This document shows, one piece after another, positions 6,792 through 33,486 of a DNA stretch of 33,580 nucleotides; position 1 is the first letter of the stretch, and the number at the start of each line of letters is the position of its first letter. The stretch covers positions 1-33,580 of the forward strand of contig JBFISM010000024.1 in assembly GCA_041608535.1 (NCBI GenBank), read 5' to 3'. The position numbers were made by a program, and so were the translations under genes. The DNA comes from Acidimicrobiia bacterium. Lineage in GTDB: Bacteria; Actinomycetota; Acidimicrobiia; Spongiisociales; UBA5794. Below the pieces are notes generated by a model. The model was not told the DNA's origin, ran no database searches, and saw only the letters and a list, made by a program, of their open reading frames with translations.

Positions 6792-6792
6792 C

Positions 6793-10208: not shown

Positions 10209-10226
10209 GTGGAGAGCGTGGAGTAG

Positions 10227-14676: not shown

Positions 14677-15200
14677 GAGCACTTCTTCGGAGGCGTGGGG
14701 AAGCTCCACCATGCCGGAGCCGCATCTCGGGGTTCCTCGACGTAGAACCGGGCCGAGGATGCGAGATCGAACCCGAGAGAGTCGAACCACCCGGTGATCG
14801 TGCGCACCTGGCTCGTCCGGGCTTCGGCGACGCCGATGGCGCCCGTGCTTCCCTCGGGATCGCCACCGCTGCCCGGGATACCGTCGGCACGGAACTCGAA
14901 ATTGGCGGGATCGATGACACCGAGTCGTCCGCACAGGATGTTGGTGATCTGTTGGCTCGACAGGTTCTCCACCGCGGCGATCCTCGCCCCTTCGCGGGCG
15001 AGATGGCGGAGCTCGCTGTTCTGGGCGAGCACGAAGCTGAATTCGATGATCCCGATGATGAAGAGGAGGAACACCGGGAACACCAGGGCGAACTCGACGA
15101 GCGAGCCCCCCCTCTCGTCGCCACGCAACCCCCGACGCCGCACGCCAAACGCCGCAGGCCCGCTACGTCGCCGGGCGCTCTGGCTGGTCACATGCGGCAC
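14673..15200 (-). CDS. TadE-like pilus assembly protein (minor pseudopilin)
   Basis: Motif GGSLVEFALVFPVFLLFIIGIIEFSFVLAQN. GTG start as in the ORF track, with a GAGGGG RBS upstream on the minus strand. The true start may be a downstream in-frame codon. The ORF-track ends were kept because the printed sequence looked 1 nt out of register in this line. Confidence 0.6.
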   Translation of the reverse strand: MPHVTSQSARRRSGPAAFGVRRRGLRGDERGGSLVEFALVFPVFLLFIIGIIEFSFVLAQNSELRHLAREGARIAAVENLSSQQITNILCGRLGVIDPANFEFRADGIPGSGGDPEGSTGAIGVAEARTSQVRTITGWFDSLGFDLASSARFYVEEPRDAAPAWWSFPTPPKKCS

Positions 15201-15321: not shown

Positions 15322-16419
15322 TCAGATCGTCCGCACCAGCAGCGGAACCCGCCGTTCCTCGGCCGTCAGGCCCCCGTGGTTGCCGATCATCCGGTCGTCG
15401 CTGTGCTTGTGCAGGAGGAAGAATCCATCGTCGGCGACGAGTACGCCGTCGGGAAGCCGCTCCGGATGGCGGAAGCCCCGTGGTGCCGGGCCCCACCAGT
15501 GCCGCATGTCATCGACCGGCACCCAGGTGGCGGGCACGGTGCCGGCGATGGCCGCTCCGTCGCCCTTGACGAACATCACCCTGCCGTCCCCGTAGAGAAT
15601 CCGTCCGTCGTGGAGCGAGCGGGGGATTCGTATCTGGCGCTCCTTGGGGAAATCGACATGCCCGTGGTCTGCGGTGCCCACCAACGTCGCATCCGGCGGC
15701 ACCTGCCACGACAGAGCCGACCACACGTTGTCGACCACCCGGATTGCGCCGGCATACTCGGGGGTGCGCTGGCCGTGGACGTGGGCTGCGTAGTCGACAT
15801 TCGCCACGTACGTGAGGATCAGCCGTCCCGGTGCGGACGCCAGGTCGGCGGTGGCCGAGATCAGCTCGCCGATCGTGGTCACTCCCTCGAACCGGCACCC
15901 CCGGTAGAGCAGACGAGTCAGGCTGCTGGTGCGGAAACCCTCCGGTTGCACCGTCACCGTCTCGACACCGGCCGCGGCGAGCCGTTCCCACAGGTTGGGG
16001 GCAGGGAGGAAAGCGGTTGTGTCGTAGTCGAGCGGGTCGCCCCACAGCGTGGTCCACTTGATGGTGTTGGCGACCACGTCGAGTTCCGGAATCCACAGCT
16101 GATATCCGAAGAGACCGTGCTGGGACGGTGGCATGCCGGTGGCGATGGTGGCCAAGCTCACCGTGGTGGTGGTCGGAAACGGGGCATCGAGCTCGGCGAC
16201 CTTGGATGCACCGAGCGTGGCGGCCCCAGGGTGATCCACCTGGGCGGCGCCCAGGCCGTCGAACACCACGAGGACGACCGTCTGCCCGGGGGTCAGCAGC
16301 GACCGCAAGCGTTTGTCGAGGCGTGGAGCCGGCGCGGCTCCGGCAAGGCGAAACTCCAGCTCCGCAACCAGGTTCAGCAGCGATCCACCGTCATAATCGG
16401 GGGCCGCCGCAGCCGTCAT
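15322..16419 (-). CDS. Alkaline-phosphatase-superfamily protein (type I phosphodiesterase / nucleotide pyrophosphatase-like)
   Basis: Motifs VVLVVFDGLGAAQ (metal-ligand Asp region), TVSLATIATGMPPSQHGLFGY, DHGH and IGNHGGLT are typical of AP-core phosphodiesterases/phosphatases. The ATG at 16419..16417 has no obvious RBS, so the transcript may be leaderless or short-leader. Confidence 0.7.
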   Translation of the reverse strand: MTAAAAPDYDGGSLLNLVAELEFRLAGAAPAPRLDKRLRSLLTPGQTVVLVVFDGLGAAQVDHPGAATLGASKVAELDAPFPTTTTVSLATIATGMPPSQHGLFGYQLWIPELDVVANTIKWTTLWGDPLDYDTTAFLPAPNLWERLAAAGVETVTVQPEGFRTSSLTRLLYRGCRFEGVTTIGELISATADLASAPGRLILTYVANVDYAAHVHGQRTPEYAGAIRVVDNVWSALSWQVPPDATLVGTADHGHVDFPKERQIRIPRSLHDGRILYGDGRVMFVKGDGAAIAGTVPATWVPVDDMRHWWGPAPRGFRHPERLPDGVLVADDGFFLLHKHSDDRMIGNHGGLTAEERRVPLLVRTI

Positions 16420-16440: not shown

Positions 16441-16468
16441 TTGAGGGCCATACCCGCCTTCCTATACT
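16441..16468 (+). promoter_or_regulatory. Putative sigma-70-type promoter for the nuoA2 operon: TTGAGG, a 16-nt spacer, then TATACT
   Basis: In the 93-nt divergent intergenic region, TTGAGG (16441-46) is followed 16 nt later by TATACT (16463-68). That is about 45 nt upstream of the nuoA2 ATG. The inverted repeat CTCGCCC-c-GGGCGAG (16467-16481) overlaps the -10 element and TSS. Confidence 0.35.
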
Positions 16469-16512
16469 CGCCCCGGGCGAGGGCTGCACCCAATGAGAGA
16501 GGTCACTACGTG

Positions 16513-16899
16513 ATGGATTCGTATCTGGGGGACTACATCACGGTCGCCGTTTTTCTGGCGGTTGGGGCGCTCCTCGTTGGCGGCGGGATCTTCGCTTCCT
16601 CCCTGCTCCGGCCCGACAAACCCTCCCGGGTGAAGTCCGAATCGTACGAATGCGGCATCGATCCGGTCGGTGGGGGCTGGTCGCAGACCCAGATCCGGTA
16701 CTACATCTTCGCCTTGCTGTTCCTCATCTTCGACATCGAAGCCGTCTTCATCTTCCCGTGGGCGATCAAGCTGGAGGACTTCTCGGCACCTGCGGTGGGC
16801 ATGGGTGGTTTCGTGCTCGTCGAGATGGTGATCTTCATCGCCATCCTCGTCGTCGGTTTGGTCTACGCCATCCGCAAAGGGGTGCTGCGGTGGGAGTGA
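16513..16899 (+). CDS. nuoA: Complex I-like subunit A (second operon)
   Basis: ATG at 16513, with GTG at 16510 also possible. It lies 11 nt after the GAGAGAGG RBS. NuoA/ND3 motifs: [43 protein letters not shown]. Confidence 0.85.
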
Positions 16900-17387
16900 T
16901 CGAGAAGTTCGGGGTTCCCAAGCCTGTGTCGTGGCTTCTCAACTGGTCTCGCAAGTATTCGCTGTGGTTCTTCCAGTTTGGGCTTGCGTGCTGCGCCATC
17001 GAGATGATGGCGGCTTCGGCTCCTCGCTACGACTTCATGCGTTTCGGGATCATCCCACTGCCGGCATCCCCCCGGCAGGCCGACCTGATGGTGGTGGCCG
17101 GCACCGTCACCGACAAGATGGCTCCTGCGGTCCGCAGGCTCTACGACCAGATGCCCGAGCCGAAATACGTGATCTCCATGGGTTCGTGCTCGAACTGCGG
17201 CGGTCCCTACTGGGATTCGTACTCGGTGACCAAGGGCGTCGATCAGGTCATACCCGTCGACGTCTACGTTCCCGGGTGCCCACCCCGCCCCGAGGCGCTG
17301 ATGGAGGGCATCGTGCTGCTTCAAGAGCAGATCATGAATGAAGACGTACGCGAGAAGTGGACCCAGCGTGACCGACAGCCCGTCTGA
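16896..17387 (+). CDS. nuoB: Complex I-like subunit B (N2 [4Fe-4S] carrier, second operon)
   Basis: GTG at 16896 in a GTGA overlap with the nuoA2 stop; GTG at 16890 is also possible. The N2-cluster Cys ligands are all present in [24 protein letters not shown] and VYVPGCPP. Confidence 0.85.
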
Positions 17388-18027
17388 AACGAGCACCGCC
17401 GAGGAAGGCACCGCAGCGACGCCGGAGGACACCGCAGGCGATGAGCTGCTGGCCACGGCCGAGCGGCTCGCCGCGCGCGTCGGATCCGAGCACTTCACTG
17501 CCGATCTCGGGACCGTGAAGATCACCGTCGACCGGGACGGCTGGGTGGGCGCCATCACCACGCTGCGCAGCGAGTTGCCGTTCTTCTCCTGGCTGTCTGC
17601 GGTGGATTGGGCGCAGGAGGTCGCAGTCGGCGAGCCGGCGGAGAACGCCGAGGAGCTGGAGGAGCGCTACGAGGTGATGTGCCGCGTCTCCTCGGTGACC
17701 GATGCTTCGGCCGCCATCGTCAGTACCACGCTCTCCAAGGACGACGCCTGGATCGATTCGCTCGTGCCCTTCATCGCCGGCGCGGAGTGGCACGAGCGGG
17801 AGGCCGCCGAGATGTTCGGCATCGACTTCCGCGGCAACCCCAACCTGACACCGCTGTACCTGCCCGACGGTTTTGTCGGGCACCCGCTGCGCAAGTCGTA
17901 CCCGTTGCTCAGCCGTGAGGTCAAGCCGTGGCCGGGCACCGTCGACGTCGAGGGTATGCCGGATGAGGAGGGTGGCGACGAAGCTGCCGGCGCCCCGTCG
18001 ACGACGAACCCCGAGGCCGGCGTATGA
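17338..18027 (+). CDS. nuoC: Complex I-like subunit C (30 kDa, second operon) with an acidic low-complexity N-terminal extension
   Basis: Conserved NuoC core ([13 protein letters not shown]...[25 protein letters not shown]). The ATG at 17338 overlaps nuoB2 by 50 nt. The alternative GTG at 17368 gives a 20-nt overlap. The N-terminus [23 protein letters not shown] is low-complexity. Confidence 0.8.
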
Positions 18028-19232
18028 CCCAGCTCGACGAGGCCAGGATCGACCCGCGAACGGCGATGCATCTGTCCGAGGCAGCTGTCTCTGTCGAGCT
18101 GGAGACACCCGACATGACCCTCAACATCGGGCCACAGCACCCGTCGACCCACGGGGTGCTCCGGCTCGTCGCCAGAGTCGATGGCGAGCGGGTGGAGGAG
18201 GTCGAGCCGGTCATCGGCTACATGCACCGTGGCTACGAGAAGCTGGCAGAGGTGCGCACCTACGCCCAGACGATCGCACTGGTCAACCGAATCGACTGGG
18301 TCTCCGGCTTTGCCAACGAGATTCCCTTCGTGGTTGCCGTGGAACGGCTCACGGGTATCGAGCCCCCGGACCGGGCGCAGTACATCCGTCTCATTCTCAC
18401 CGAGATGGCCAGGATCGCGTCGCATCTCGTCTTCATGTCGTCGTACCCGCTCGAGCTGGGCGCCGCCACACCCCTCATGCATGCGCTGCGCGAGCGGGAA
18501 CGGGTGCTCGAGCTCATCGAGAGCGTCACCGGGGGCCGCTTCCATCCCAATTTCAACCGGGTGGGCGGGGTCAAGCCTGTATACGGTGGCGGATCGAGCA
18601 CGAAGAAGCAGAGTCAGGATCTCCCGGCAGGTTTTCTCCAGGGCACCCGTGATGCCATGGAGAAGATCATGGCGATCACAGACGATCTCGACCAGCTCGT
18701 GACCGGGAACGAGTTGATCCAGGCCCGCACGGTCGGAGTCGGTGTCATCCCGGCCGACAGAGCGCTCGAGTACGGCCTGTCGGGACCGAACCTGCGCGCC
18801 TCCGGGGTCAATTTCGACCTCCGCAAACACGAGCACATCCTCCCGTACGCCAACTTCGACTTCGAAATCCCGCTTGGCTCCAACGGCGACTGCTACGACC
18901 GCTATGTGGTTCGTAACGAGGAGATCCGCCAGAGCGCCCGGATCATCCAGCAGGCCGTCGATGGCATTCCCGCGGGCCCGCTCCAGGCGAAGGTTCCTCG
19001 CATCCTCAAGGTTCCCGTCGGTGAGACCTACGTTCGCGCCGAGAACCCGAAAGGCGAGATGGGCTATCACGTCATCTCGCAGGGAGGACGCATCCCGTAC
19101 CGGGTGAAGATCCGCTCGGCCTCGTTCTCCAATCTCTCGATCCTGCCGTGGATCCTGGAGGGACAGCTCATCCCCGATCTCGTCGCAATCATGGGCAGCC
19201 TCGATTTCGTCCTGGGCGACGTGGACAGGTAG
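18024..19232 (+). CDS. nuoD: Complex I-like subunit D (49 kDa, second operon)
   Basis: ATG in an ATGA overlap with the nuoC2 stop. The 402-aa protein has NIGPQHPSTHGVLRLV and the conserved quinone/N2-proximal IGYMHRGYEKL (Arg codon at 18228-30). Confidence 0.9.
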   Translation: MTQLDEARIDPRTAMHLSEAAVSVELETPDMTLNIGPQHPSTHGVLRLVARVDGERVEEVEPVIGYMHRGYEKLAEVRTYAQTIALVNRIDWVSGFANEIPFVVAVERLTGIEPPDRAQYIRLILTEMARIASHLVFMSSYPLELGAATPLMHALRERERVLELIESVTGGRFHPNFNRVGGVKPVYGGGSSTKKQSQDLPAGFLQGTRDAMEKIMAITDDLDQLVTGNELIQARTVGVGVIPADRALEYGLSGPNLRASGVNFDLRKHEHILPYANFDFEIPLGSNGDCYDRYVVRNEEIRQSARIIQQAVDGIPAGPLQAKVPRILKVPVGETYVRAENPKGEMGYHVISQGGRIPYRVKIRSASFSNLSILPWILEGQLIPDLVAIMGSLDFVLGDVDR

Positions 19233-19246
19233 GGGGCGGGTACATC

Positions 19247-20269
19247 GTGGAACTCAACTTCTGGCTGGCGCTGCTGCTCAAGGTTGCACTCATTCTGGGC
19301 GTGATGCTGCCGGGTGCTCTCGTGATCATCTTCGGCGAGCTGAAGATCTCGGCTCACATGCAGAGCCGCATCGGTCCGTACTTCGCCGGGGGCCGTTTTG
19401 GCTGGGCGCAGCCGCTCGCCGACGGGCTCAAGTTCATGCAGAAAGAGGATCTCGTACCGGCGCAGGCCGACGCCACGGTCTACAAGCTGGCGCCGTATGT
19501 GGTCATGATGGGGACGCTGGCCACCTTCGTCATCATCCCGTTCGGGCCCGATCTCGTGGCGGAGAACCTCGATCTCGGTGTGTTCTACCTGCTCGCGGTG
19601 TCGTCGCTGTCGACACTCGGGGTGCTCATGGCCGGCTGGTCCTCGGGCAACAAGTACTCGCTCATCGGAGGCCTGCGCGCCGCGGCACAGCTCATTGCCT
19701 ACGAGCTGCCGCTGGTGCTCGCCGTCGTGGGGGTCGCCATCATGGCCGGGACCCTTTCGCTCAATGGCATAGTCGAGGCGCAAGCGGAGTGGCGCTGGTT
19801 CGACGTCGCCCCCGAGTGGATCAACATCATCCCGCCGTACCTGATCCTGCAAGGTGCCGGGTTTGCGATCTTCGTCACCGCCAGCCTCGCCGAGCTGAGC
19901 CGGATCCCTTTTGACATGCCCATTGCGGAATCGGAGCTGACGATGGGCTACCTCACCGAGTACTCGGGTCTCCGGTTCACCATGTTCTTTCTCGGCGAGT
20001 ATGCCGGGATGGTCGCGATGTCGGCGGTCGCGGCCACCCTGTTCCTCGGTGGCTACTGGCTTCCGTTCGTCTCCGAAGACGCCCTCAACTTCCTCGGCCC
20101 GGTCGTGCTGCTCACGAAGGTGGGGCTGCTCGCCTTTGTGTTCATCTGGTTCCGGTGGACCTTCCCCCGGCTGCGCGAGGACCAGCTGCAGAGCCTCGCC
20201 TGGAAGTGGCTCATCCCGGCTGCCCTGGTCAACATCGTCGTGACCGCAACCGTGAAAGTGTTGGTGTGA
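19247..20269 (+). CDS. nuoH: Complex I-like subunit H (second operon)
   Basis: GTG at 19247 lies 7-9 nt after the GGGGGCGGG RBS. The N-terminus [21 protein letters not shown] matches NuoH. It has the NuoH motifs [11 protein letters not shown] and [27 protein letters not shown]. The upstream in-frame extension (19148-19246) overlaps nuoD2 and is Arg/Gly junk. Confidence 0.88.
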
Positions 20270-20273
20270 AGCG

Positions 20274-20759
20274 ATGACGATGACGAACCGCCGACCCAAC
20301 ATCTCCATACCCGTCAAAGGCTTGATGCGGGGGTTGGCCCTCACCCTGAAGACACTCTTCACCAAGCCGGTCACGGTCAACTACCCCCTGGTCAAGGAGG
20401 TTCCGGTCCCTCGCGCCAGGGGCGTGATCGCACTCGATCCCGAAGCGTGCACCGTGTGCATGCTGTGCGCCCGGGAATGTCCGGACTGGTGCATCTACAT
20501 CGAGGGACACAAGGAGGAGGTTCCCCCCGCCAAGGAGGGGGGCCGGGTGCGCACGCGGGCCACACTCGATCGGTTCGACATCGACTATGCGCTGTGCATG
20601 TACTGCGGGATCTGCGTGGAGGTGTGCCCGTTCGATGCGCTCTTCTGGAGCCCCGACTACGAGTACTCCGAGTACGACATCAGCGAGATGCTGCACGACC
20701 AGAACCGGCTCACCGACTGGCTGAAGACGGTCCCCGAGCCGCCCCCGCTGGAGACGTAG
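20274..20759 (+). CDS. nuoI: Complex I-like subunit I (2x[4Fe-4S], second operon)
   Basis: 161 aa. The cluster motifs are [12 protein letters not shown] and [12 protein letters not shown]. It has no C-terminal extension, unlike first-operon NuoI. Confidence 0.9.
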
Positions 20760-21314
20760 ATGACGGTCGGCGACTTCTTCACCACGACCGAGAACTGGGT
20801 GTTCCTGCTCATCGCACTCCCGATGCTCTTCGCCGGATACAAGGTGGTGACTACGAACAACGTGGTCCACGCCGTCCTGGCTCTCGTGGGTGCGCTCGCC
20901 GGTTCGGCAGCGCTGTTCGTGCTGCTCGGGGCGGAGTTCGTGGCGTGGACTGTCGTGCTCATCTCGATCGGCGCCGTCATCGTTCTGTTTCTCTTCGGAA
21001 TCATGATCACCAGGGCGCCGATCGGGCTCGAGGTCGATCTCAGCCATCCCCGGAGCGCGAGGATCTCGGCGGCGGTGGCATCGGGCGGTCTCTTCGTCTT
21101 GCTCGGCTCGGCCATGCTCGCTGAGTTCGGTGACGAGGTGATTCCAGAAGCGGCCGATGCCACCCGTACGGATGCGCTGGGGCTGCTGCTCTTCCAACGC
21201 TATGTGGTTCCTTTCGAAGTGGTCTCGGTCGTGCTGCTGGCGGCTCTGATCGGAGGCATCGTCATCGCACGGCGTGATCCCAGTCCGGACGAACCGGCAG
21301 GGACCAGGCTCTGA
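20760..21314 (+). CDS. nuoJ: Complex I-like subunit J (second operon)
   Basis: ATG immediately after the nuoI2 TAG (TAGATG). The 184-aa protein is hydrophobic and NuoJ-like. Confidence 0.85.
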   Translation: MTVGDFFTTTENWVFLLIALPMLFAGYKVVTTNNVVHAVLALVGALAGSAALFVLLGAEFVAWTVVLISIGAVIVLFLFGIMITRAPIGLEVDLSHPRSARISAAVASGGLFVLLGSAMLAEFGDEVIPEAADATRTDALGLLLFQRYVVPFEVVSVVLLAALIGGIVIARRDPSPDEPAGTRL

Positions 21315-21619
21315 TGCTTATCAACGGCTTCCTCCTGCTCGGCGCCGCCCTCTTCTCGCTGGGTGTCTACGGCCTCCTCGTGCGCCGTAACGCAGTGCTC
21401 ATCCTGCTGTCGGTTGAGCTGATGGTGGCCGCCGTGAACATCAACTTCGTCGCGTTGGACCGGTTCCTCGGTGACGACCTCGCCGGTGGCCAGGTCTTCG
21501 CCCTCTTCAGCATCGCCGTGGCGGCAGCCGAGGTCGGGATCGGTCTGGCGATCATCCTGCTCGTGTTTCGCAACCGCCAGTCCGCCAACGTCGATGAGCT
21601 GGATCTGATGCGGCTATGA
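21314..21619 (+). CDS. nuoK: Complex I-like subunit K (second operon)
   Basis: ATG overlaps the nuoJ2 TGA (cTGATG). The 101-aa protein has LVRRNAVLILLSVELMVAAVNINFVAL...AAAEVGIGLAIILLVF. Confidence 0.88.
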   Translation: MLINGFLLLGAALFSLGVYGLLVRRNAVLILLSVELMVAAVNINFVALDRFLGDDLAGGQVFALFSIAVAAAEVGIGLAIILLVFRNRQSANVDELDLMRL

Positions 21620-23718
21620 GCCTGCTTGCCGCACTGTCGACGGAAGTGCCCCTGCTGCTGGCCGCGGCAACGGAGGAAGGCGGGCATGCCGAGCTCGGCG
21701 ACGGTGGTGGGCTCGCTGCGGCCGCGTGGCTCATCCCGCTCGTCCCGATGGTGGCCGCTTTCGTCATCGCATTGTTCGGCAAGCACTTCCCGTACAGAGG
21801 GTGGGACATCGCCACGGCGGTGATGGGCTTCGAAGCGGTGTACGGCACCTTCCTGCTCATCGCCCACCTCGCCCGCCCGATCGCCTACGAAGGTGCGATC
21901 GAAATCGCGCGAATCGGGAGCTTCCCCATCGAGTGGGGCTGGGTGGTCGACGGGCTCAGCATCATGATGTACTTCGTCGTCGGTGTCGTCGGCTTCTTCG
22001 TCTTCCTCTACGCCAAGGGCTATATGGAAGGCGACATTCGCTACACGTGGTTCTTCGCCTCGTTCACGCTGTTCGCCGGTGGCATGCTGGTCCTGGTCTC
22101 CGCACCCAACCTCATCCAGCTCATCGTGGGTTGGGAGCTGGTCGGCGTGGCGTCATGGTTGCTCATCGGTCACTACTGGGAGGATCACGCCAACAGCTCT
22201 GCGGCGATCAAGGCGTTCCTCACGAACAAAGTGGCCGACGTGGGTCTCTTCATCGGCGCCATCATCCTGGCCCTGTCCGTCGGGTCGTTCCGTTTCTCGG
22301 ACATCCTCCACGCCGTCGAGGAGGGAGTGCCCGCGCTGGCTCAGTTCGCCTTCTGGGCCGGGCTCGCCGTGTTCATCGGGGCGATGGGCAAGAGCGGGCA
22401 GTTCCCCCTTCATGTGTGGCTCCCCGACGCCATGGCCGGTCCCACTCCCGTGTCGGCCCTCATGCACGCCGCCACCATGGTCACGGCAGGGATCTATCTG
22501 GTGGCCCGTCTCTTCCCGCTGTACCTCACCGAAGGGTTCGCCGATGAAGTGCGCTCGGTGATCATCATCATCGGGGCGCTCACGCTGTTCCTCACCGGGC
22601 TCATCGCACTGGTCCAGGACGACATCAAGAGGGTGCTGGCATACTCGACGCTGTCCCAGCTCGGCTACATGATGGCGGCGCTCGGGGCGGGGGCGTACAC
22701 GGCCGCTCTGTTCCACCTCTTCACCCACGCCTTCTTCAAGGCGCTGCTCTTCCTCGGCGCCGGCTCGGTGATCCATGCGGTGCACTCGAACAACATGTCC
22801 GACATGGGTGGGTTGCGGAAGTACATGCCCTGGACGTTCCGCACGTTCGTCATCGGTGCGCTGGCGCTCGCCGGGATCGCTCCTCTGGCCGGCTTCTTCT
22901 CCAAAGACGAGATCCTCGCTTCGTTCCGCTACGCCGGGAGCGCCGAATCCGGATTCAGTGCGGCGCAGGGTGGCGCCGGGCTCGCCAACATCGTCCTGGT
23001 GCTGGGCATTGCCGCAGCATTCGTGACCGCCTTCTACATGGCGCGGGCGGTGTTCCTCACGTTCTTCGGCGAGTACAAGGGGCACGGCCATCCTCACGAG
23101 TCGCCCGCCGTCATGTGGATTCCGCTGGTGGGGCTCGCCGTCGGCTCAGCGTTCGCCGGCTTCCTCAACGTCCCAGGTGTCACCGAGTTCTTCACCGAGC
23201 TGGTTGGCGGCCGGGCAGTGCCGGTTCTCGATCACCACGCCGAGAGCTTCGATGTCGTCGTGGTGGTGCTGGGTCTCGCCGCCGCGCTGCTCGGCATCTT
23301 CTTCGGCTACCGCATCTGGTATCCCGACAAAGCAACCCAAGCGGAGCGAGACCGGTTCCACGTTCGTGGTCTCTACCCGTTGCTGGAGAACAAGTATTAC
23401 ATCGACGATCTGTACTTCGACGGCATCATCCGTCCGATCCGGGGCCCGGTGGCGGCCGGAGTCAACTGGTTCAACGGCCACGTGATCGATTTCGTCGTCA
23501 ACGGCGCCGGATTCCTCGCCCGTGGGCTCGGCAAGCTCGTCTATGCCTTCGACCAGAACGCCGTCGACGGCGCCATCAACGCCTCGGGCGCCTTCACCGG
23601 TGGGTGGGGGGAGCTGCTGCGCAAGGTACAAACCGGTCGAGTGCAGCAATACGCAACGATGATCGTGGCGGGAACGGTGCTTCTCGTCGCCGGGATCGTC
23701 ATCGCAGGCATCATCTGA
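21616..23718 (+). CDS. nuoL: Complex I-like subunit L (antiporter-like, second operon)
   Basis: ATGA overlap with the nuoK2 stop. The 700-aa protein has VGWELVGVASWLLIGHYW and LHVWLPDAMAGPTPVSALMHAATMVTAGIY, plus a long C-terminal helix region. Confidence 0.9.
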   Translation: MSLLAALSTEVPLLLAAATEEGGHAELGDGGGLAAAAWLIPLVPMVAAFVIALFGKHFPYRGWDIATAVMGFEAVYGTFLLIAHLARPIAYEGAIEIARIGSFPIEWGWVVDGLSIMMYFVVGVVGFFVFLYAKGYMEGDIRYTWFFASFTLFAGGMLVLVSAPNLIQLIVGWELVGVASWLLIGHYWEDHANSSAAIKAFLTNKVADVGLFIGAIILALSVGSFRFSDILHAVEEGVPALAQFAFWAGLAVFIGAMGKSGQFPLHVWLPDAMAGPTPVSALMHAATMVTAGIYLVARLFPLYLTEGFADEVRSVIIIIGALTLFLTGLIALVQDDIKRVLAYSTLSQLGYMMAALGAGAYTAALFHLFTHAFFKALLFLGAGSVIHAVHSNNMSDMGGLRKYMPWTFRTFVIGALALAGIAPLAGFFSKDEILASFRYAGSAESGFSAAQGGAGLANIVLVLGIAAAFVTAFYMARAVFLTFFGEYKGHGHPHESPAVMWIPLVGLAVGSAFAGFLNVPGVTEFFTELVGGRAVPVLDHHAESFDVVVVVLGLAAALLGIFFGYRIWYPDKATQAERDRFHVRGLYPLLENKYYIDDLYFDGIIRPIRGPVAAGVNWFNGHVIDFVVNGAGFLARGLGKLVYAFDQNAVDGAINASGAFTGGWGELLRKVQTGRVQQYATMIVAGTVLLVAGIVIAGII

Positions 23719-23734
23719 CAGGAGGAACCGAGAC

Positions 23735-25312
23735 ATGTTCGACAATGGGCTGGCATTGAGCCTCGTCGTGATCCTCCCGCTCATCGGGGCGGGAGTGGTC
23801 ATGGCCGTGCCCAAGGCAAACGAGTCGGCCCAGAAGATGACGGCGCTCGTGTTCACCGCGGCAGCCTTCGTGCTCTCCGTCGTCCTGGCGATCCAGTTCG
23901 ATTACGGGGACGCGAGCGCGTTCCAGTTCGGCACCGACCTCGATTGGATCGGCGCCATCAACTCCCGGTACCACATCGGGCTCGACGGCATCAGCCTGCC
24001 ACTGCTCGTGCTGTCGACGTTTGTGACGCTGCTGTCAGTGATCTACTCGTGGGAGCACTGGCCCGAGCCGCACAATCCCAAGGCCTTCATCATCCTCATG
24101 TTGGTGCTTGCGACCGGGATGAACGGCACGTTCGTCGCCCTGGACCTGATCTTGTTCTTCGTCTTCTTCGAGGTCGTGCTGCTCCCGATGTACTTCATGA
24201 TCGGGATCTGGGGTGATCGGGCCGAGACCGAGATTCCGGTGTTCAAACGGGTCACGGAGATGCGGCTCTATGCGGCGATCAAGTTCTTCCTGTTCACCCT
24301 GTTCGGCTCGGCGTTCATGTTGCTCGGTTTCCTCGGGCTCTACTTCCGTTCGGGTGACGCCGGCGGGATTCGCACGTTCGACATGCTGGCGCTCAGCGAG
24401 CTGGGTCGGGCCGGGGTGTTCGCCGGGTCTTTCGGGATGTGGGTGTTTGCCGCGCTCTTCCTCGGCTTTGCCGTGAAAGTGCCGATGTTCCCGTTCCACA
24501 CCTGGCTCCCCGACGCCCACACCGCGGCGCCGACCGTCGGCTCTGTGCTGCTGGCGGCGATCCTGCTGAAGCTGGGCACCTACGCCTTCGTACGGATCTC
24601 CCTCCCCATCCTCCCGGAGGCGGCGCAGCGCTGGGCGCCGACGATCGGCATCCTCGCCGTCATCGGGATCATCTATGCCTCGCTGGCGTGTCTCGCCCAG
24701 ACGGACATGAAACGGCTCATCGCCTTCTCCTCTGTCGGCCACATGGGATTCGTCATGCTGGGCATCGCCACGCTCACCGACATCGGGATCAACGCCGCCA
24801 TCATCGGGATGGTGGCGCACGGAGTGATCACCGGGCTGCTGTTCTTCCTCGCCGGGTCGATGTCGCACCGCTACCACACGAGGGAGATGGCTCGGTTGGG
24901 CGGCAACCAGCAGCTCATGCCGATCATGGGGGCCATCCTCGGCTTCACCGCCATGGCTTCGCTCGGATTGCCCGGTCTCGCCGGGTTCTGGGGTGAGTTC
25001 ATGGCGCTGCTCGCATCGTTCAACCCGCTCGAAGGTCTGAGCACCGGGCTGTTCCGCACGCTGATGGTGCTCGGTGCGGTGGGGACGGTGCTTGCCGCCG
25101 GCTACCTGCTGTGGATGCTGCAACGGGTCAACTTCGGCGAGCCCAAGGCCGAGTGGGAGGGCCATCACTTCCACGACGTCGACGGGTACGAGATGGCGGC
25201 GTGGGCACCCATGATCCTCGCCATCATCGCCATCGGCGTGTTCCCGCGTCTCGTGTTCGGGTCCACCAACGACGCCGTCGTCGCTCTCGTCAACGCAGCA
25301 TTCGGGGGTTAG
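23735..25312 (+). CDS. nuoM: Complex I-like subunit M (antiporter-like, second operon)
   Basis: ATG lies 9 nt after the AGGAGG RBS (23720-25). The 525-aa protein has FPFHTWLPDAHTAAPTVGSVLLAAILLKLGTYAFVRIS. Confidence 0.9.
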   Translation: MFDNGLALSLVVILPLIGAGVVMAVPKANESAQKMTALVFTAAAFVLSVVLAIQFDYGDASAFQFGTDLDWIGAINSRYHIGLDGISLPLLVLSTFVTLLSVIYSWEHWPEPHNPKAFIILMLVLATGMNGTFVALDLILFFVFFEVVLLPMYFMIGIWGDRAETEIPVFKRVTEMRLYAAIKFFLFTLFGSAFMLLGFLGLYFRSGDAGGIRTFDMLALSELGRAGVFAGSFGMWVFAALFLGFAVKVPMFPFHTWLPDAHTAAPTVGSVLLAAILLKLGTYAFVRISLPILPEAAQRWAPTIGILAVIGIIYASLACLAQTDMKRLIAFSSVGHMGFVMLGIATLTDIGINAAIIGMVAHGVITGLLFFLAGSMSHRYHTREMARLGGNQQLMPIMGAILGFTAMASLGLPGLAGFWGEFMALLASFNPLEGLSTGLFRTLMVLGAVGTVLAAGYLLWMLQRVNFGEPKAEWEGHHFHDVDGYEMAAWAPMILAIIAIGVFPRLVFGSTNDAVVALVNAAFGG

Positions 25313-25318
25313 CCGGCG

Positions 25319-26836
25319 GTGATCGACTACCACGCCATCGCTCCCGAGATCATCCTCGGTCTCACGGTGCTCGCCGTGCTGATAGTCGATCTGCTGCCGG
25401 TGCCCAAGTACTTCACGGCAGTGGTGGGGCTGCTCGGCCTCGCGGCAACCGTGGTCCCGCTGCTCACACTCGGGTTGTGCGAATCCCTGGCGTTCTGCAC
25501 TGAGACCGGCGACCGCGTCATGTTGGGCAACAGCTACGTCATCGACGATTTCGCTCTCGTCCTCAAGGGACTGTTCTTGGCAGCCACATTCGTGGCCCTG
25601 TTGCTCTCGGTCGGCTACATCGAGGATGACCGTTACTGGCAGGGTGAGTTCTATTTCCTCATGCTCGCTTCGGCGTTCGGCGCCGTGGTGATGGCGTCGT
25701 CTCGCGACCTGTTGACGCTGTTCGTCGGGCTCGAGCTGGTGACCGGGCCGACCTTCCTGATGGCCGGCTGGCGCAAGGGCGATCCGAAGTCGAATGAAGC
25801 TGCGCTGAAGTACTTCGTCATCGGTGTGCTCTCGGCGGCCATCTTGTTGTTCGGGATGTCGCTCGTCTACGGGGTCACCGGTGATCTCACGTTCTCCGGG
25901 ATCCGGGCGGTCACCGCGGCGAGCACCGAGCCGGGCACGCTGTTGTCGATCGGGGTGATCCTCACGCTGCTCGGCTTCGCCTTCAAGGTGTCGGCGGTGC
26001 CGTTCCACTTCTGGACCCCGGACACGTATGAAGGGGCCCCGATCCCGGTGACCGCTTATCTGTCGGTCGTGTCGAAGACGGCCGGGTTCGTCGGGCTGTT
26101 GTCGCTGTGCTATCTCGCCTTCGCCGAGCTGCGAGACCTGTGGGGCCCGATGCTGTGGATCCTGGCAGCCCTGTCGATGACAGTGGGCAACCTCATCGCG
26201 GTCCGTCAGGACGACATCGTCCGGCTCCTCGGGTACTCCTCGATCGCCCAGGGCGGCTTCATCCTGGTGCCCTTTGGGGCGGCGGTGGCTGCCGATCTCA
26301 CCGGCGCGGATCTGGAGCAGATGTTCTTCGCCACGGTGGCCTATCTGGTCATCTATGCGGTGATGAACTTGGGGGCGTTCGCCGTGGTGATCGCCGGCGC
26401 CAACCGCATCAAGAGCACCGCCATCGCCGACTGGGCCGGAACGAGCACCTATGCCCCGGTCCTGGCCGGGTTGCTTGCCCTGTTCTTCGCTTCGCTTGCC
26501 GGCATCCCTCCGATTGCCGGTTGGTTCGCCAAGCTGGCCATGTTCGCGTCGGTGCTGGGTGTCGACAGCGGCTGGGCGACGGTGCTCGCCGTGATCGCTG
26601 TGATCAATTCGGTGGTGGCGTTCTATTACTACGCCAAGGTCATCAAATCGGCGTGGTTCGATCCGGTTCCCGCCGCCATCCCCGCAGCGGAGCTCCGCGA
26701 CACCGATCGCCGAATCGCCCCCTCGCTCAAGCTCGCTCTGGCCCTCACCGCGGTCCTGGTGCTGGTGCTCGGTTTCTACCCTGAACCCGTCGGCCTCCTC
26801 AGCGAAGTCTCCAGTACGTTTGCCAGCGGCTTCTGA
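25319..26836 (+). CDS. nuoN: Complex I-like subunit N (antiporter-like, second operon)
   Basis: GTG at 25319 is 7 nt after the nuoM2 TAG. The 505-aa protein has FHFWTPDTYEGAPIPVTAYLSVVSKTAGF. Stop TGA at 26834-36. Confidence 0.88.
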   Translation: MIDYHAIAPEIILGLTVLAVLIVDLLPVPKYFTAVVGLLGLAATVVPLLTLGLCESLAFCTETGDRVMLGNSYVIDDFALVLKGLFLAATFVALLLSVGYIEDDRYWQGEFYFLMLASAFGAVVMASSRDLLTLFVGLELVTGPTFLMAGWRKGDPKSNEAALKYFVIGVLSAAILLFGMSLVYGVTGDLTFSGIRAVTAASTEPGTLLSIGVILTLLGFAFKVSAVPFHFWTPDTYEGAPIPVTAYLSVVSKTAGFVGLLSLCYLAFAELRDLWGPMLWILAALSMTVGNLIAVRQDDIVRLLGYSSIAQGGFILVPFGAAVAADLTGADLEQMFFATVAYLVIYAVMNLGAFAVVIAGANRIKSTAIADWAGTSTYAPVLAGLLALFFASLAGIPPIAGWFAKLAMFASVLGVDSGWATVLAVIAVINSVVAFYYYAKVIKSAWFDPVPAAIPAAELRDTDRRIAPSLKLALALTAVLVLVLGFYPEPVGLLSEVSSTFASGF

Positions 26837-26841
26837 TGGCT

Positions 26842-26865
26842 TCGAGCCAAGCAGGCTTGGCTCGA
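26842..26865 (+). terminator. GC-rich hairpin (11-bp inverted repeat TCGAGCCAAGC-ag-GCTTGGCTCGA) between nuoN2 and the methyltransferase gene; no U-tract
   Basis: A perfect inverted repeat starts 6 nt after the nuoN2 stop. It is followed by CTTGACGG rather than a T-run. It could act as a partial (factor-dependent or I-shaped) terminator, or as an RNA-stability or processing element. Confidence 0.35.
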
Positions 26866-26887
26866 GCTTGACGGACCCTGGAGTCGC

Positions 26888-27943
26888 GTGACTCACCTCA
26901 AACCACGCATCGTGGAGCGGATCACGGCTGAGGGGCCGATGGCGTTCGAGGAGTTTCAGCGGCTGTGTCTGTACGACCCGGATGGAGGGTTCTTTGCCAC
27001 CGGGCCGTTGCGGTCCACGAAGAGCGGCGACTTCCTGACCAGTCCGGAGGTGTCCCCGTGGTTTGGGCGGATGCTGGGCAGGTACGTCGCTCAGGTCGAC
27101 GAGCGTTTGGGGCGTCCGGGTGACATCGTCGAGGTGGGCGCCGGCTCCGGCTCGCTTCTCGCAAGCCTCATGGACGAGCTGGGGGAGCGGCCACTGTGGG
27201 CGGTCGAGGTCGCTCCGGCAGCGCAAATCGCATTACGGGAGCTTGGCGATCATGTCCAAGTCGTGGAGAGCATGCACGATCTCCCCAACGCCATCGCGGG
27301 AACGATTCTCGCCAACGAGTTGCTCGACAACCTCCCGGTGGCTCTGGTGCGCTGCGAGGGCGGCAGCTTCTACGAGCAGTGGGTGGAATACGACGGGGAG
27401 TCCTTGGAACTGGTACCCACCCCGATGCGCCCCGCGGTCGCCGAATGGGTCGACATGTACGCGGGACCGGTCATCGACGGTGGGCTGGTCGAAGTGCAGC
27501 TGCAAGCCGCGACCTGGACGAGAGAGGTGCTGGCAAAGCTGGAGCATGGCGCTCTCGTCGTGATCGATTACGGCGGGACCACAGAAGAGCTGGAGCCGCG
27601 TCGTTCTGCGGGAACGTTGCGCACCTATCGGGCGCACCATCTGGGGCCGGATCCGCTTCTCGAGCCGGGTGCCACCGACATCACCGTCGATGTGAACTTC
27701 ACGGCCCTGGCCGACGTCGCCGCTGCGGCGGGCGCAGAGGTGGATGTGGTTCGCCAAGACGACTTCTTGGAAAGGCTCGGATTGCGCACCGTCATCGGCG
27801 AGCTGCGGGGTCGCGAGCTGGAATTGGCCCGCTCTGGAGACGACATGGCGCGGCTGGTGGTCCGCAGCGAGCTGAAGGATGCCGAGACGCTTCTACACCC
27901 CCGTGGTCTCGGCGACTTCCGGGTTCTCATCGCCACGAAGTAG
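26888..27943 (+). CDS. SAM-dependent methyltransferase, MidA/NDUFAF7 family (COG1565, DUF185)
   Basis: GTG at 26888. Diagnostic blocks of the family are the N-terminal FEEFQRLCLYDPDGGFFATG, the SAM-binding IVEVGAGSGSLLASLM, then GTILANELLDNLPVALV, VVIDYGGT and DITVDVNFTAL. Its start lies 51 nt downstream of nuoN2, and it is on the same strand. Confidence 0.8.
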   Translation: MTHLKPRIVERITAEGPMAFEEFQRLCLYDPDGGFFATGPLRSTKSGDFLTSPEVSPWFGRMLGRYVAQVDERLGRPGDIVEVGAGSGSLLASLMDELGERPLWAVEVAPAAQIALRELGDHVQVVESMHDLPNAIAGTILANELLDNLPVALVRCEGGSFYEQWVEYDGESLELVPTPMRPAVAEWVDMYAGPVIDGGLVEVQLQAATWTREVLAKLEHGALVVIDYGGTTEELEPRRSAGTLRTYRAHHLGPDPLLEPGATDITVDVNFTALADVAAAAGAEVDVVRQDDFLERLGLRTVIGELRGRELELARSGDDMARLVVRSELKDAETLLHPRGLGDFRVLIATK

Positions 27944-28012: not shown

Positions 28013-28354
28013 ATGGTACTTGACGATGTCAGTCACCATACCCAGCTGCTCAAGGGGCTCATCGACATGTGTCTGCTGGCCGTGATCGACAGGAACCCGA
28101 GCTACGGGTACGAGATGGTGCGCAAGCTCGAGGAACAGAATCTCGAGATCGCAAGCGAAACCTCGATCTACCCGGTGCTGAAGCGGCTGGGGCGACGGGG
28201 ACTGATCGAGAGCTACCTCGTCGATTCAGACGCAGGACCGGCTCGCAAGTACTACCGCATAACGCCCAGCGGGCGAGAAACACTGGGCGAATGGGTGCGT
28301 GACTGGCGCACCGTGAGGAACGGAGTCGATGATGTATTGGGGGGTCAGCACTAA
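28013..28354 (+). CDS. PadR-family transcriptional regulator
   Basis: Winged-HTH PadR signature: LLKGLIDMCLLAVIDRNPSYGYEMVRKL...SETSIYPVLKRLGRRGLIESY...ARKYYRITPSGRE. Confidence 0.85.
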   Translation: MVLDDVSHHTQLLKGLIDMCLLAVIDRNPSYGYEMVRKLEEQNLEIASETSIYPVLKRLGRRGLIESYLVDSDAGPARKYYRITPSGRETLGEWVRDWRTVRNGVDDVLGGQH

Positions 28355-28387
28355 AACCCATGCTCGTGCGCGTTGTGGGGGTGCGCG

Positions 28388-29005
28388 ATGATCTGGGTGT
28401 ACGTGGCGGCAGCCATCTTCGGTGGCGGATTCATCATCCCGATGCTGTTGGGCGGTCTCGACTTCGACACCGATGCTGAAATCGAATTCGACACCGACGC
28501 CGATCTGGATCTGGGAGAGGGTGATTTCGACACCGACACGGACGGCTCGTTGAGCCAGGCAGCCGGCGGCATCGGCGACTTCGTCGCTTCGCTGCTCAGC
28601 TTCCGTACGCTCGTGTTCTTCCTGGCGTTCTTCGGGATCGTCGGGATCGTGCTCACCCTGTTGGGTTACTCCGAGCCGCTGCCATTGGCTACGGCGCTAC
28701 CGCTCGGCCTTTTCGCCGGCACGGTGAACGCCAGGCTGGTGGATTACGTGAAGCGCTCCGAAGTGTCGTCGCACATCACCAGCCGGGAGCTGGGTGGATC
28801 TCGAGCCAGGGTGGTGCTTCCCATCGCCGCCGGTCGCAAGGGACGGGTGGAAGTGAGTCTGGGTGGCCAGCCCACCTACATGGTGGCCCTGCCGTACAAA
28901 CAAGACGCACCCGAGATCGATCGGGGCGCAGAGGTCGTGGTCGTAGAGGTACGGGAAGGAACGGCGTACGTCGCTCCGCTTCCCGCATTCGAGGAAGGAA
29001 AGTAG
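28388..29005 (+). CDS. NfeD-like membrane protein (OB-fold; SPFH/flotillin partner) with an acidic DFDTD repeat insert
   Basis: ATG at 28388; the track's TTG at 28373 is less likely. It has an N-terminal TM, a second TM after the acidic segment, and a C-terminal NfeD OB-fold (RARVVLPIAAGRKGRVEVSLGGQPTYMVALPY...GAEVVVVEVREGTAYVAPL). The unusual acidic segment is GGLDFDTDAEIEFDTDADLDLGEGDFDTDTDG. It sits directly upstream of the flotillin gene, as in yuaF-floT. Confidence 0.75.
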   Translation: MIWVYVAAAIFGGGFIIPMLLGGLDFDTDAEIEFDTDADLDLGEGDFDTDTDGSLSQAAGGIGDFVASLLSFRTLVFFLAFFGIVGIVLTLLGYSEPLPLATALPLGLFAGTVNARLVDYVKRSEVSSHITSRELGGSRARVVLPIAAGRKGRVEVSLGGQPTYMVALPYKQDAPEIDRGAEVVVVEVREGTAYVAPLPAFEEGK

Positions 29006-30301
29006 ATGGAGTTTCTTGCACTCATTGCGATCTTCTTGGTCGTGATCGTTGCGGTGGCGTTCTCCGCCATCAAGAGCCTGATCGTGATCTGCCCGCCCAA
29101 CCAGGTGGCAGTGATCTCGGGTCGGAGCCGGCCGGTCGACGACGGGCGCACCGTGGGCTACCGGGTGATCAAGGGTGGCCGCACCATCCGAATCCCGGTG
29201 CTGGAGAAGGTCGACTACATGGATCTCAACACGATCCCCATCGACGTCTCCGTGAGCAATGCGTATTCGAAGGGCGCCATCCCGCTCGACGTCCAAGGTG
29301 TGGCCAACATCAAGGTATCGAGCCGTGAGGGCATTCTGGAGAACTCAGTGGAGCGGTTCTTGGGTCGCGATCCTGCGTACATCCAGCAGATCGCGAAGGA
29401 GAACCTCGAGGCCAACCTACGTGGCGTCCTATCGACGCTGACGCCGGAGGAGGTCAACGAGGATCGTCTCAAGTTCGCCCAAACGCTCATCGAGGAGGCC
29501 GACGACGACATTCGCACGCTGGGGCTGGAGCTCGACGTGCTGAAGATCCAGAACGTCACCGATCAGGTGGGCTATCTGGAGGCAGTGGGCCGCCGCCGCA
29601 CCGCCCAGGTGCTCAAGGAGGCTCGCGAGTCCGAGGCGATGCAAGAGGCCGAAGCTGCCGAAGCCGAGGCCGACGGCCGCAGGCGGGCCGAGCTGGCCCG
29701 AGTCGAATCGGACCTTGCCATCGCCGAGGAGCAGAACAAGCTCCGGGTGCGTCAGGCAGAGCTCGAAGCAGCCGCGCTGGCCGAAGAGGAGCGAGCTCTC
29801 GTATCCGGCGCCAAGGCGAAGGTAATCGCCGAGCAGGATCTCGAGCTGCAGCGGATCCAGCTCCAAGATCGGCGTCTCGAAGCCGACGTCATCGCCCCGG
29901 CGCGGGCCGAGAAGGAGGCGCTGGAGCTGAAGGCGAAGGGTGTCGCTGCCAAGATCGTCGAGGACGGCGCCGCCCAGGTGCGGGTCCTCGAACAGCTCGC
30001 CGGCCACTTCGAGGCGGCCGGGGAGGATGCCCGCGACATCTTCGTCCTGCACATGCTTCCCGAGCTGGTGCAGCACATCACCGACACGGTGAGTGGGATC
30101 GATGTGGAGAGGATCACTGTGATCGACAACGGTCAAGGTGGTTCCGGCAAGGGTCTGCCCAGCGTGGCGTCGCAGATGCCGGCGGCCGTGATCTCCATCA
30201 CCGAACAGATCGAGGCGGCGACCGGGGTCAACATCCTGTCGGCGCTCAACAAGGAGGTGAACCGGAAGGCCCGCCCGGAGCCGGTGGAGGTCACCGAGTG
30301 A
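29006..30301 (+). CDS. Flotillin-like SPFH/Band-7 domain protein
   Basis: ATG lies 8 nt after the GAGGAAGG RBS. It has an N-terminal TM, an SPFH domain (QVAVISGRSR...RVIKGGRTIRIPVLEKVDYMDLNTIPIDVSV), and a long EA-rich coiled coil (EAMQEAEAAEAEA...ELEAAALAEEERA). This is the typical FloT/YuaG architecture. Confidence 0.85.
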   Translation: MEFLALIAIFLVVIVAVAFSAIKSLIVICPPNQVAVISGRSRPVDDGRTVGYRVIKGGRTIRIPVLEKVDYMDLNTIPIDVSVSNAYSKGAIPLDVQGVANIKVSSREGILENSVERFLGRDPAYIQQIAKENLEANLRGVLSTLTPEEVNEDRLKFAQTLIEEADDDIRTLGLELDVLKIQNVTDQVGYLEAVGRRRTAQVLKEARESEAMQEAEAAEAEADGRRRAELARVESDLAIAEEQNKLRVRQAELEAAALAEEERALVSGAKAKVIAEQDLELQRIQLQDRRLEADVIAPARAEKEALELKAKGVAAKIVEDGAAQVRVLEQLAGHFEAAGEDARDIFVLHMLPELVQHITDTVSGIDVERITVIDNGQGGSGKGLPSVASQMPAAVISITEQIEAATGVNILSALNKEVNRKARPEPVEVTE

Positions 30302-30343
30302 CCATGCGGGAACCATGACCAGCCGGTGGGGCGTCTCAATCAT

Positions 30344-30916
30344 ATGAGCGCACCTCTGGTGAGACGCTGGGACGTGCTCCGTCGCACCGCGGCCGCACTG
30401 CTGGCGATGACGTTGTTCATCGCAGCGTGCGGCGCCGATTCCACGGGTGACGGGGCCGACCCGACCATCACCGACCCACCGGTCACCACACCGGCGCCGG
30501 ACACGACGGCGCCGTCCGATCCAGGAGAACCAGTGACCGACAGCACGCCACCGAGCAGCGAGCCGCCCGGGAGCGGAGACACGACACCGCCCACCGGCAA
30601 CGTCGCCTTCGCCATCGCCGATCTCGCCGAGCTGATTGGGGTCGATCCCGCTGACATCGTCGTCGTCTCCCAAGAGGACGTGACGTGGCGGGACGGTTCG
30701 CTGGGGTGCCCTCAATCCGGCATGATGTACACCCAGGCCCTGGTCGACGGGTACAAGATCATCCTCGAAGTGGACGGGGTGCAGTACCCGTATCACGGCA
30801 AGGGCACCCAAGAGCCGTTCTTGTGCACCAACGATCTGCCGATCGACACGCCGACACCGACCTTCCTCGAACCGAAGGAAGAAGATGCCGAGGAAACCGG
30901 TTCTCTCGACTATTGA
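30344..30916 (+). CDS. Predicted lipoprotein with a Pro/Thr-rich linker and a C-terminal domain of unknown function
   Basis: Signal peptide plus lipobox (RRTAAALLAMTLFIAAC|GADS). A PT-rich linker follows (TITDPPVTTPAPDTTAPSDPGEPVTDSTPPSSEPPGSGDTTPP). Then comes a globular domain of about 95 aa with 2 Cys and no motif I recognise. ATG 30344 is preferred over GTG 30326. Confidence 0.6.
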   Translation: MSAPLVRRWDVLRRTAAALLAMTLFIAACGADSTGDGADPTITDPPVTTPAPDTTAPSDPGEPVTDSTPPSSEPPGSGDTTPPTGNVAFAIADLAELIGVDPADIVVVSQEDVTWRDGSLGCPQSGMMYTQALVDGYKIILEVDGVQYPYHGKGTQEPFLCTNDLPIDTPTPTFLEPKEEDAEETGSLDY

Positions 30917-33401: not shown

Positions 33402-33486
33402 GCCGGGATGCCCGAGCGGCCAAAGGGAGCAGACTGTAAATCTGCCGGCAATGCCTTCGGAGGTTCGAATCCTTCTCCCGGCACCA
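33402..33486 (+). tRNA. tRNA-Tyr (anticodon GTA), class II with a long variable arm, CCA encoded
   Basis: Acceptor stem GCCGGGA/TCCCGGC. D-loop GCCCGAGCGGCCAAAGGG. Anticodon loop CT-GTA-AA. Variable stem-loop CGGCAATGCCTTCGG. T-arm GGAGGTTCGAATCCTTC. Discriminator A, then CCA (33484-86). Confidence 0.85.

Follow-up and report, generated by a model that had tools for sequence, protein, structure and literature searches.

We analysed a 33,580-nt stretch of genomic DNA from an Acidimicrobiia bacterium (contig JBFISM010000024.1 of assembly GCA_041608535.1, positions 1 to 33,580 of the forward strand), here called the window; coordinates without a locus name refer to it. The gene under study (26888..27943, plus strand) encodes a class I S-adenosylmethionine (SAM)-dependent methyltransferase of the MidA/NDUFAF7 family (PF02636, COG1565), as judged by Pfam, PDB matches and an AlphaFold2 (AF2) fold. 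It is a recurrent same-strand downstream partner of an 11-subunit complex I-type operon, nuo2, in several deeply diverged Acidimicrobiia lineages. In the window, the nuo2 operon (16441..26836, plus strand) comprises nuoA2, nuoB2, nuoC2, nuoD2, nuoH2, nuoI2, nuoJ2, nuoK2, nuoL2, nuoM2 and nuoN2, without nuoE, nuoF and nuoG. Pfam matches were obtained for 10 of the 11 products; NuoM2 (23735-25312), which was not among the ten scanned, was assigned from its sequence and orthologues. Operons of this kind, lacking the genes of the N module, are labelled 'nuoA2-N2' and occur in other Actinobacteria. The gene content and order of 16441-26836 are the same as in other N-module-less 11-gene nuo operons (nuoA, B, C, D, H-N), for which we found no report of an attached MidA-type gene. 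The last gene of the operon, nuoN2 (25319..26836, plus strand), is the conserved upstream neighbour of the methyltransferase gene. Its stop codon ends at 26836, and the open reading frame (ORF) coordinates together with the Pfam results confirm that the two genes lie on the same strand with 51 nt between them, as had been described in the initial annotation of this DNA.

The methyltransferase ORF (26888-27943, plus strand) begins with GTG and encodes 351 amino acids. A GGAG sequence (26880..26883, plus strand), which resembles a ribosome-binding site, lies 4 nt 5' of the GTG. The public gene call (P0001, 334 amino acids) begins 17 codons later, at the internal Met18. Homologues align from residue 4 onwards, residues 4-17 are conserved, and L4 and G16 are invariant. 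The GTG start is therefore the better one, and the deposited annotation is probably 17 codons too short (26888-26938).

The 351-residue product matched the Pfam family PF02636 (Methyltransf_28) with an E value of 1.1e-38 and a score of 133.6 bits (cut-off 23.3), over profile positions 1-246 of 249. A scan of the same protein against NCBIfam gave no family match, and it consequently carries no curated bacterial name. Sequence matches in the PDB were to 4f3n (5e-29), 1zkd (2e-23) and 5ztz, Dictyostelium MidA (1e-14). An AF2 model built with 16 homologues had a mean predicted local distance difference test (pLDDT) score of 80.5 and a predicted template modelling (pTM) score of 0.84, with low confidence at residues 240-251. 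When this model was compared with known structures, all six COG1565/MidA structures came out on top (TM 0.71-0.77, E 1e-21 to 1e-24); the next-best methyltransferases followed at E 1e-6 and TM ~0.36. By these matches the model has the family fold, which is a Rossmann-type methyltransferase core with inserted and C-terminal elements as in 4F3N, 1ZKD and 5ZTZ. The protein is thus a genuine member of COG1565/DUF185, as first proposed.

The blocks that are diagnostic of the family, which the initial annotation had listed, were all recovered upon alignment with alpha-proteobacterial, Burkholderia and Acidimicrobiia members. We defined active-site blocks by columns that are invariant across these subgroups rather than by published residue-level definitions; the invariant columns are common to the window protein, 1ZKD, the Burkholderia homologue P0136 and the Acidimicrobiia members. 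The first block, GDFLTSPEVS (residues 47-56; 27026..27055, plus strand), corresponds to the family pattern GDFxTSPExS, and its D, F, T, P, E and S are invariant across the aligned alpha-, Burkholderia- and Acidimicrobiia-type members. It is followed by motif I, VEVGAGSGS (GxGxG; residues 81-89; 27128..27154, plus strand), the glycine-rich SAM-binding loop, and by ANELLDNLP (NExxDxxP; residues 142-150; 27311..27337, plus strand), in which N, E, D and P are invariant in the aligned family members. The last segment (27563..27700, plus strand) consists of IDYGG, containing the invariant DYG, the insertion EPRRSAGTLRTYRAHH and the block PGATDITVDVNF, which follows the pattern PGxxDxTxxVxF. We conclude with high confidence that ORF 26888-27943 encodes a functional MidA-family methyltransferase.

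The closest homologues of this protein, at 55-70% identity, are encoded by metagenome-assembled genomes of Acidimicrobiia (Actinomycetota). The identical gene is present in source samples such as SRR29257475, SRR29257476 and SRR29257484. Among the proteins of known structure, the best sequence match is the COG1565 protein of Burkholderia thailandensis (4F3N/4G67; fold TM 0.75-0.77), and the window protein scores higher against 4F3N than against 1ZKD or 5ZTZ. The DUF185 protein of Rhodopseudomonas palustris (1ZKD) was matched with a fold TM of 0.71. Identity to both the 4F3N and the 1ZKD types is 29-32%, or about 30%. The insertion EPRRSAGTLRTYRAHH is common to the window protein and the Burkholderia 4f3n type (RRxxGTL in 4F3N) and is shorter in the alpha/MidA type. 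Both 4F3N and 1ZKD are structural-genomics proteins of uncharacterised function, so that likeness to them transfers no substrate. Human NDUFAF7 and MidA of Dictyostelium discoideum (5ZTZ, 5ZU0) belong, like the window protein, to PF02636; the fold was matched with a TM of 0.72 and an E value of 2e-21, and the blocks GDFxTxPExS, GxGxG, NExxDxxP, DYG and PGxxDxTxxVxF are held in common. In contrast to these proteins, to which it is ~21-22% identical by structural alignment and which it matches only weakly and in split segments at the sequence level (5ztz), the window protein has the extra RRxxGTLxxYRxH insertion. By pairwise scores and this insertion, used here in place of a rooted tree, it does not fall closest to the alpha-proteobacterial/mitochondrial NDUFAF7 orthologue group and is best treated as a separate bacterial subgroup.

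NDUFAF7 symmetrically dimethylates Arg85 of NDUFS2 and is needed for complex I assembly (PMC3829151). The homologue of NDUFS2 (49-kDa subunit) encoded in the window, NuoD2 (18024..19232, plus strand), is the candidate substrate. Its target motif reads VIGYMHRGYEKL, and the arginine of HRGYE is Arg69, encoded by a CGT codon (18228..18230, plus strand) within GYMHRGYEK and equivalent to the dimethylated Arg85 of NDUFS2; the target residue had been correctly located from the outset. The candidate substrate peptide for the methyltransferase is VIGYMHRGYEKLAEVR. The neighbouring NuoD2 carries the residue known to be modified by NDUFAF7/MidA, and the window gene differs from theirs in adjoining the operon of its presumed substrate, an 11-subunit enzyme without the NADH-oxidising module. 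In the related nuo2 operons that we sampled, the HRGxE arginine motif was present without exception (13 of 13). Presence of the motif is necessary but says little for methylation, and we rejected it as evidence because HRGxE is near-universal and Escherichia coli keeps the arginine unmodified.

Methylation of this arginine in bacteria has precedents. Symmetric dimethylarginine was detected by mass spectrometry in Nqo4 of Paracoccus denitrificans in 2013 (PMC3750175), and the modification was seen as cryo-electron microscopy density at Arg65 of the Paracoccus protein in 2024 (PMC11522691). The statement in the initial annotation that arginine methylation of a bacterial complex I was uncharacterised is thus out of date: it is established which enzyme family is involved, which residue is the target and that a bacterium has the modification. 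Mitochondria and a single bacterium are so far known to carry it (PMC11522691). The NuoD homologue of Paracoccus (Nqo4/NDUFS2) carries the very modification proposed for the window. Paracoccus is, however, an alpha-proteobacterium with a NADH-oxidising enzyme of 14 core subunits, and the window organism is an actinobacterium of the Acidimicrobiia. NuoCD of E. coli retains the arginine in unmodified form, and Thermus thermophilus has a threonine at this position (PMC3750175). HRGXE is highly conserved across complex I and partly so in NiFe hydrogenases, and the dimethylarginine beside cluster N2 may serve assembly, redox tuning or both (PMC8042128). As related in one later paper, structural and bioinformatic arguments have led to the proposal that the NuoD homologue is methylated by MidA homologues in bacteria, with those of alpha-proteobacteria as the enzyme there (PMC9006661, which cites Shahul Hameed 2018). 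A survey of bacterial complex I and nuo operons mentions no methyltransferase (PMC4453560).

The 51-nt junction between nuoN2 and the methyltransferase gene contains a perfect 11-bp inverted repeat, TCGAGCCAAGC / GCTTGGCTCGA (26842..26865, plus strand; arms 26842-26852 and 26855-26865). No T-tract follows it, in agreement with the hairpin lacking a U-tract that had been noticed earlier. The predicted fold has a free energy of -29.9 kcal/mol (z = -2.6), and the element may serve as an attenuator or terminator, or may stabilise the RNA. We rejected the idea that it is an element repeated within the window, as only its own two arms matched. Rfam and tRNA scans found nothing at the junction, and a scan for sigma-70-like promoters, which is ill-suited to this phylum, found none there. 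Among related loci, the gap is 9-15 nt in five (L006, L008, L015, L017 and L046) and 50-170 nt in many others, the latter with long, perfect and non-homologous hairpins whose stems reach 24 bp. Co-transcription with nuo2 is likely in lineages with gaps of 7-15 nt; because of the hairpin, the window may or may not follow this pattern. Very long perfect hairpins were seen in the gap of four relatives (L001:9928-10000, L025:8325-8422, L019:9936-10000 and L082:6751-6831), with stems of ~18-24 bp and energies of -36 to -52 kcal/mol. A CGTTCTTGCGTAG core common to those of L001 and L025 hints at either a palindromic element that is dispersed or a type of terminator that is conserved.

One genome per species was scanned, which yielded 80 loci with methyltransferases of the Acidimicrobiia type, 53-64% identical to the window protein. 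Loci were classed by tblastn with the window proteins and by clustering of crude gene calls. This gave 83 non-redundant loci including the window, 57 of which were informative; the other 26 had too little upstream sequence. nuoN2 was found upstream of the methyltransferase gene in 27 of the 57 informative loci, directly and on the same strand in 19 and with 1-4 unrelated genes between in 8. In another 26 loci, the B clade, the upstream genes were tsaE-tsaB-rimI-tsaD-groES-groEL, and lipoprotein, S8, M48 and tuf genes lay downstream; four loci had other upstream genes. When the methyltransferases were placed in a neighbour-joining tree, the loci on the groEL side formed one nested clade and the nuo2-linked loci the rest, so that one event of gain or loss explains the split. 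Taken alone, the data from this closest clade are equally compatible with functional coupling and with gene order inherited at the boundary of an operon.

We then considered more distant family members. A search of cluster representatives gave 9785 at E ≤ 1e-3 and 537 at 1e-30, and a representative with 43% identity, reused as the query, led to further clades. In two loci labelled 'Acidimicrobiales' (L173 and L176), the genes nuoD, H, I, J, K, L, M and N are followed by the methyltransferase gene after 7 and 14 nt. These methyltransferases are 35-37% identical to the window protein, hardly above the 30-32% seen with Burkholderia. Their downstream genes have no relation to the window's, and no other synteny is left. 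In a third locus (L172), which belongs to the 43% clade, nuoH to nuoN are followed by a small minus-strand gene and then by the methyltransferase gene. The operons in all three are orthologues of nuo2: their NuoH proteins are 57-69% identical to NuoH2 and 41-44% to NuoH1 of the second nuo operon described below, and their NuoN proteins are 44-57% identical to NuoN2 and 34-37% to NuoN1. Of the five loci sampled from two deeper clades of Acidimicrobiia type, three thus had the nuoN2 pairing, two of them with gaps of 7-14 nt, and in L173 and L176 the pairing recurs outside general local synteny. This softens the view that the linkage is only inherited local synteny. Because the pair persists in Acidimicrobiia where all else has changed, and does so with operon-like spacing, the pattern is what one would expect from functional coupling. 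Comparative genomics thereby lends real support to a probable link between the methyltransferase and complex I. The conserved linkage to nuoN2 on which the initial proposal depended accordingly stands in part: it was found in the 27 closest-clade loci and the three deeper ones, and it was missing from the B clade and from two loci of the 43% clade (L170 and L171) and interrupted at eight junctions.

Other genes of the window were also inspected. The tail of a second, full nuo operon (nuo1), with nuoF, G, H, I, J, K, L, M and N, occupies positions 1-11744 on the same strand as nuo2, ~4.7 kb away; nuoN1 ends at 11744 and the next ORF is unrelated. Between the two operons lie a weakly bactofilin-like ORF (11728-12915), a Tad-like ORF of 747 amino acids (12905-15148, minus strand) and a type I phosphodiesterase gene (15322-16419, minus strand). 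Within nuo2, the mechanically called ORFs of nuoB2 (16650-17387) and nuoH2 (19148-20269) overlap the preceding genes by ~250 and ~85 nt, and their true starts are probably further downstream. On the 3' side of the methyltransferase gene lie genes for a PadR regulator, a membrane protein, an SPFH/Band-7 protein, a lipoprotein-like ORF, an M48 peptidase, an EamA transporter, a TetR regulator and tRNA-Tyr; the last (GTA anticodon; 33402-33486) was found by the tRNA scan at the end of the window. The first three of these (28013-30301) include the membrane protein of 210 amino acids, which has an acidic DFDTD-rich stretch and a faintly NfeD-like C-terminus (E 0.17). This trio separates the methyltransferase gene from the lipoprotein/M48 genes only in the window (0 of 82 related loci). 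The lipoprotein-like ORF (30326-30916) has a signal peptide, an AACG lipobox-like site, a Pro/Thr-rich linker and a C-terminal domain that contains Cys. It has no Pfam match, and no other downstream neighbour accompanies the methyltransferase gene as constantly (43 of 50 loci). We considered its product as an alternative substrate of the methyltransferase and rejected it, as the signal peptide, lipobox-like site and linker make it look like a secreted lipoprotein.

Two further neighbourhoods were noted among the distant relatives. In L170 and L171, the methyltransferase gene is closely preceded by a cox/xdh (molybdenum hydroxylase) operon that ends with a separate MobA-like gene (L170:6862-7479; L171:6853-7470), and in the protein P0257 (534 amino acids) a MobA-like NTP_transf_3 domain is fused to a MidA-family domain. 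The MobA-like association may be a second, unrelated recurring neighbourhood. In two loci labelled 'Actinomycetota', an ORF of 102-112 amino acids with weak TPR-like matches (L174:7696-8004; L175:3728-4066) shares 4 nt with the start of the methyltransferase gene, an overlap that hints at translational coupling.

The explanation that we favour, giving it about an even chance, is that the methyltransferase modifies the HRGxE arginine of a NuoD-type subunit, on the basis of family precedent and the deep pairing with nuo2. As the pairing with a nuo operon recurs in distant relatives, the enzyme probably methylates a complex I subunit. It would act like NDUFAF7 and the presumed Paracoccus enzyme, binding the free NuoD-type subunit and symmetrically dimethylating the arginine of the HRGxE loop, namely Arg69 of NuoD2 and possibly also the corresponding residue in NuoD of the full nuo1 operon. 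Methylation would precede the docking of NuoB, the carrier of cluster N2, and would affect assembly of the Q module and/or the environment of cluster N2. In lineages with gaps of 7-15 nt, the gene would probably be expressed by read-through from nuo2; in the window, expression may depend on read-through modulated by the intergenic hairpin and/or on a separate promoter.

Several observations weigh against methylation of a NuoD-type subunit. The 26 loci of the B clade keep the gene at the same chromosomal address beside groEL, without nuo2 or any other nuo gene within 10 kb and with the same conserved residues. Across the A (nuo2-linked) and B clades, 91 alignment columns have the same residue at a conservation of 95% or more, and no difference is fixed; with constraints this similar, the function of the methyltransferase is independent of adjacency to nuo2. 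The junction has received eight independent insertions of unrelated genes (8 of the 27 linked loci), which differ between loci and several of which are on the minus strand. As a neighbour, nuo2 is less constant than the downstream genes: of 50 loci, 43 have the lipoprotein-like gene and 39 the M48 gene, in both groups. Strong hairpins after nuoN2, in the window and in many relatives, suggest that the transcript ends there. Linkage to nuo genes was found in none of 81 proteobacterial-type loci: the Burkholderia gene has an SDR/folB pair on one side and DUF2905 on the other and no nuo genes nearby, and 80 alpha-type metagenome loci (43-78% identical to 1ZKD) gave no tblastn match to 15 Nuo queries within 10 kb. 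We therefore rejected linkage as a hallmark of the family as a whole. All these features, and the size of a family with 9785 cluster representatives of which almost none is characterised, speak for a MidA-family methyltransferase with a different protein substrate, whose place after nuoN2 reflects inherited order at an operon boundary. This is the main rival, and we regard it as possible but somewhat doubtful: L173 and L176 keep the pairing at 35-37% identity with gaps of 7-14 nt and no other synteny, the only family members of known function act on the NuoD homologue (PMC3829151), and tests in two bacteria showed the modification in Paracoccus and its absence in E. coli (PMC3750175). Also to be set against NuoD methylation are the arrangement in L170 and L171, where the methyltransferase gene follows the cox/xdh-type operon and MobA-like gene with M48 and tuf still downstream, and that in L174 and L175, where it lies between aldolase and HSP20 genes (nuo pairing in 0 of 2 'Actinomycetota' loci). 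The window protein, moreover, resembles the alpha/mitochondrial type less than it does the uncharacterised 4f3n type of Burkholderia, the function of prokaryotic MidA has been described as 'only inferred in silico' (PMC12455994, 2025), and the paper on the mycobacterial complex I structure, the one such structure from an actinobacterium, mentions no arginine methylation (PMC10068793).

The comparison does not bear out the claim that the methyltransferase is dedicated to nuo2, given the B clade without nuo genes, the insertions at the junction, the more constant downstream genes and the lack of linkage in proteobacterial-type loci. In its strict form, that of a twelfth nuo2 gene encoding a Nuo2-specific maturation factor that is always co-transcribed and does not act on the 14-subunit Nuo1, we consider it improbable. 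The gene does follow nuo2 and not nuo1, the spacing is 7-15 nt in seven loci and the pairing is deeply conserved; but the gene is retained under unchanged constraints in lineages without nuo2 within 10 kb, minus-strand insertions break co-transcription in several lineages, and the window itself has the hairpin. Least probable is that the enzyme methylates a nucleic acid or a small molecule instead of a protein arginine. Expression of Wolbachia MidA in E. coli was reported to result in methylation of DNA adenine and cytosine (PMC12455994), and the more distant structural neighbours of the window protein are small-molecule methyltransferases. Those structural matches are, however, far weaker (TM ~0.36 versus 0.72-0.77), all the invariant blocks common with the arginine methyltransferase MidA are kept, and the window offers no DNA-binding or restriction-modification context.

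What is gained here is incremental, as the family of the enzyme, the residue that it targets and the existence of the modification in a bacterium were known already. The new elements are an actinobacterial member of the family, the conserved pairing of its gene with a nuo operon, and the N-module-less nature of the enzyme that this operon specifies. Complex I has few conserved post-translational modifications, and the dimethylarginine next to cluster N2 is among them; experiments have linked no bacterial enzyme to it (PMC12455994). The conserved MidA-nuo pair offers independent genomic support for the idea that family members outside the alpha-proteobacteria serve complex I, and it widens the question to N-module-less complex-I-like enzymes. 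The 2018 paper on the MidA structure is said to have proposed the modification as a proteobacterial invention. We suggest, quite tentatively, that the MidA-type enzyme may be a co-inherited maturation factor of the N-module-less Nuo2 in Acidimicrobiia that dimethylates Arg69 of NuoD2 next to cluster N2. If so, arginine methylation of NuoD would extend beyond the alpha-proteobacterial/mitochondrial lineage to a complex-I-like enzyme that does not oxidise NADH, and the modification would be an old property of the quinone module, older than the proteobacteria.

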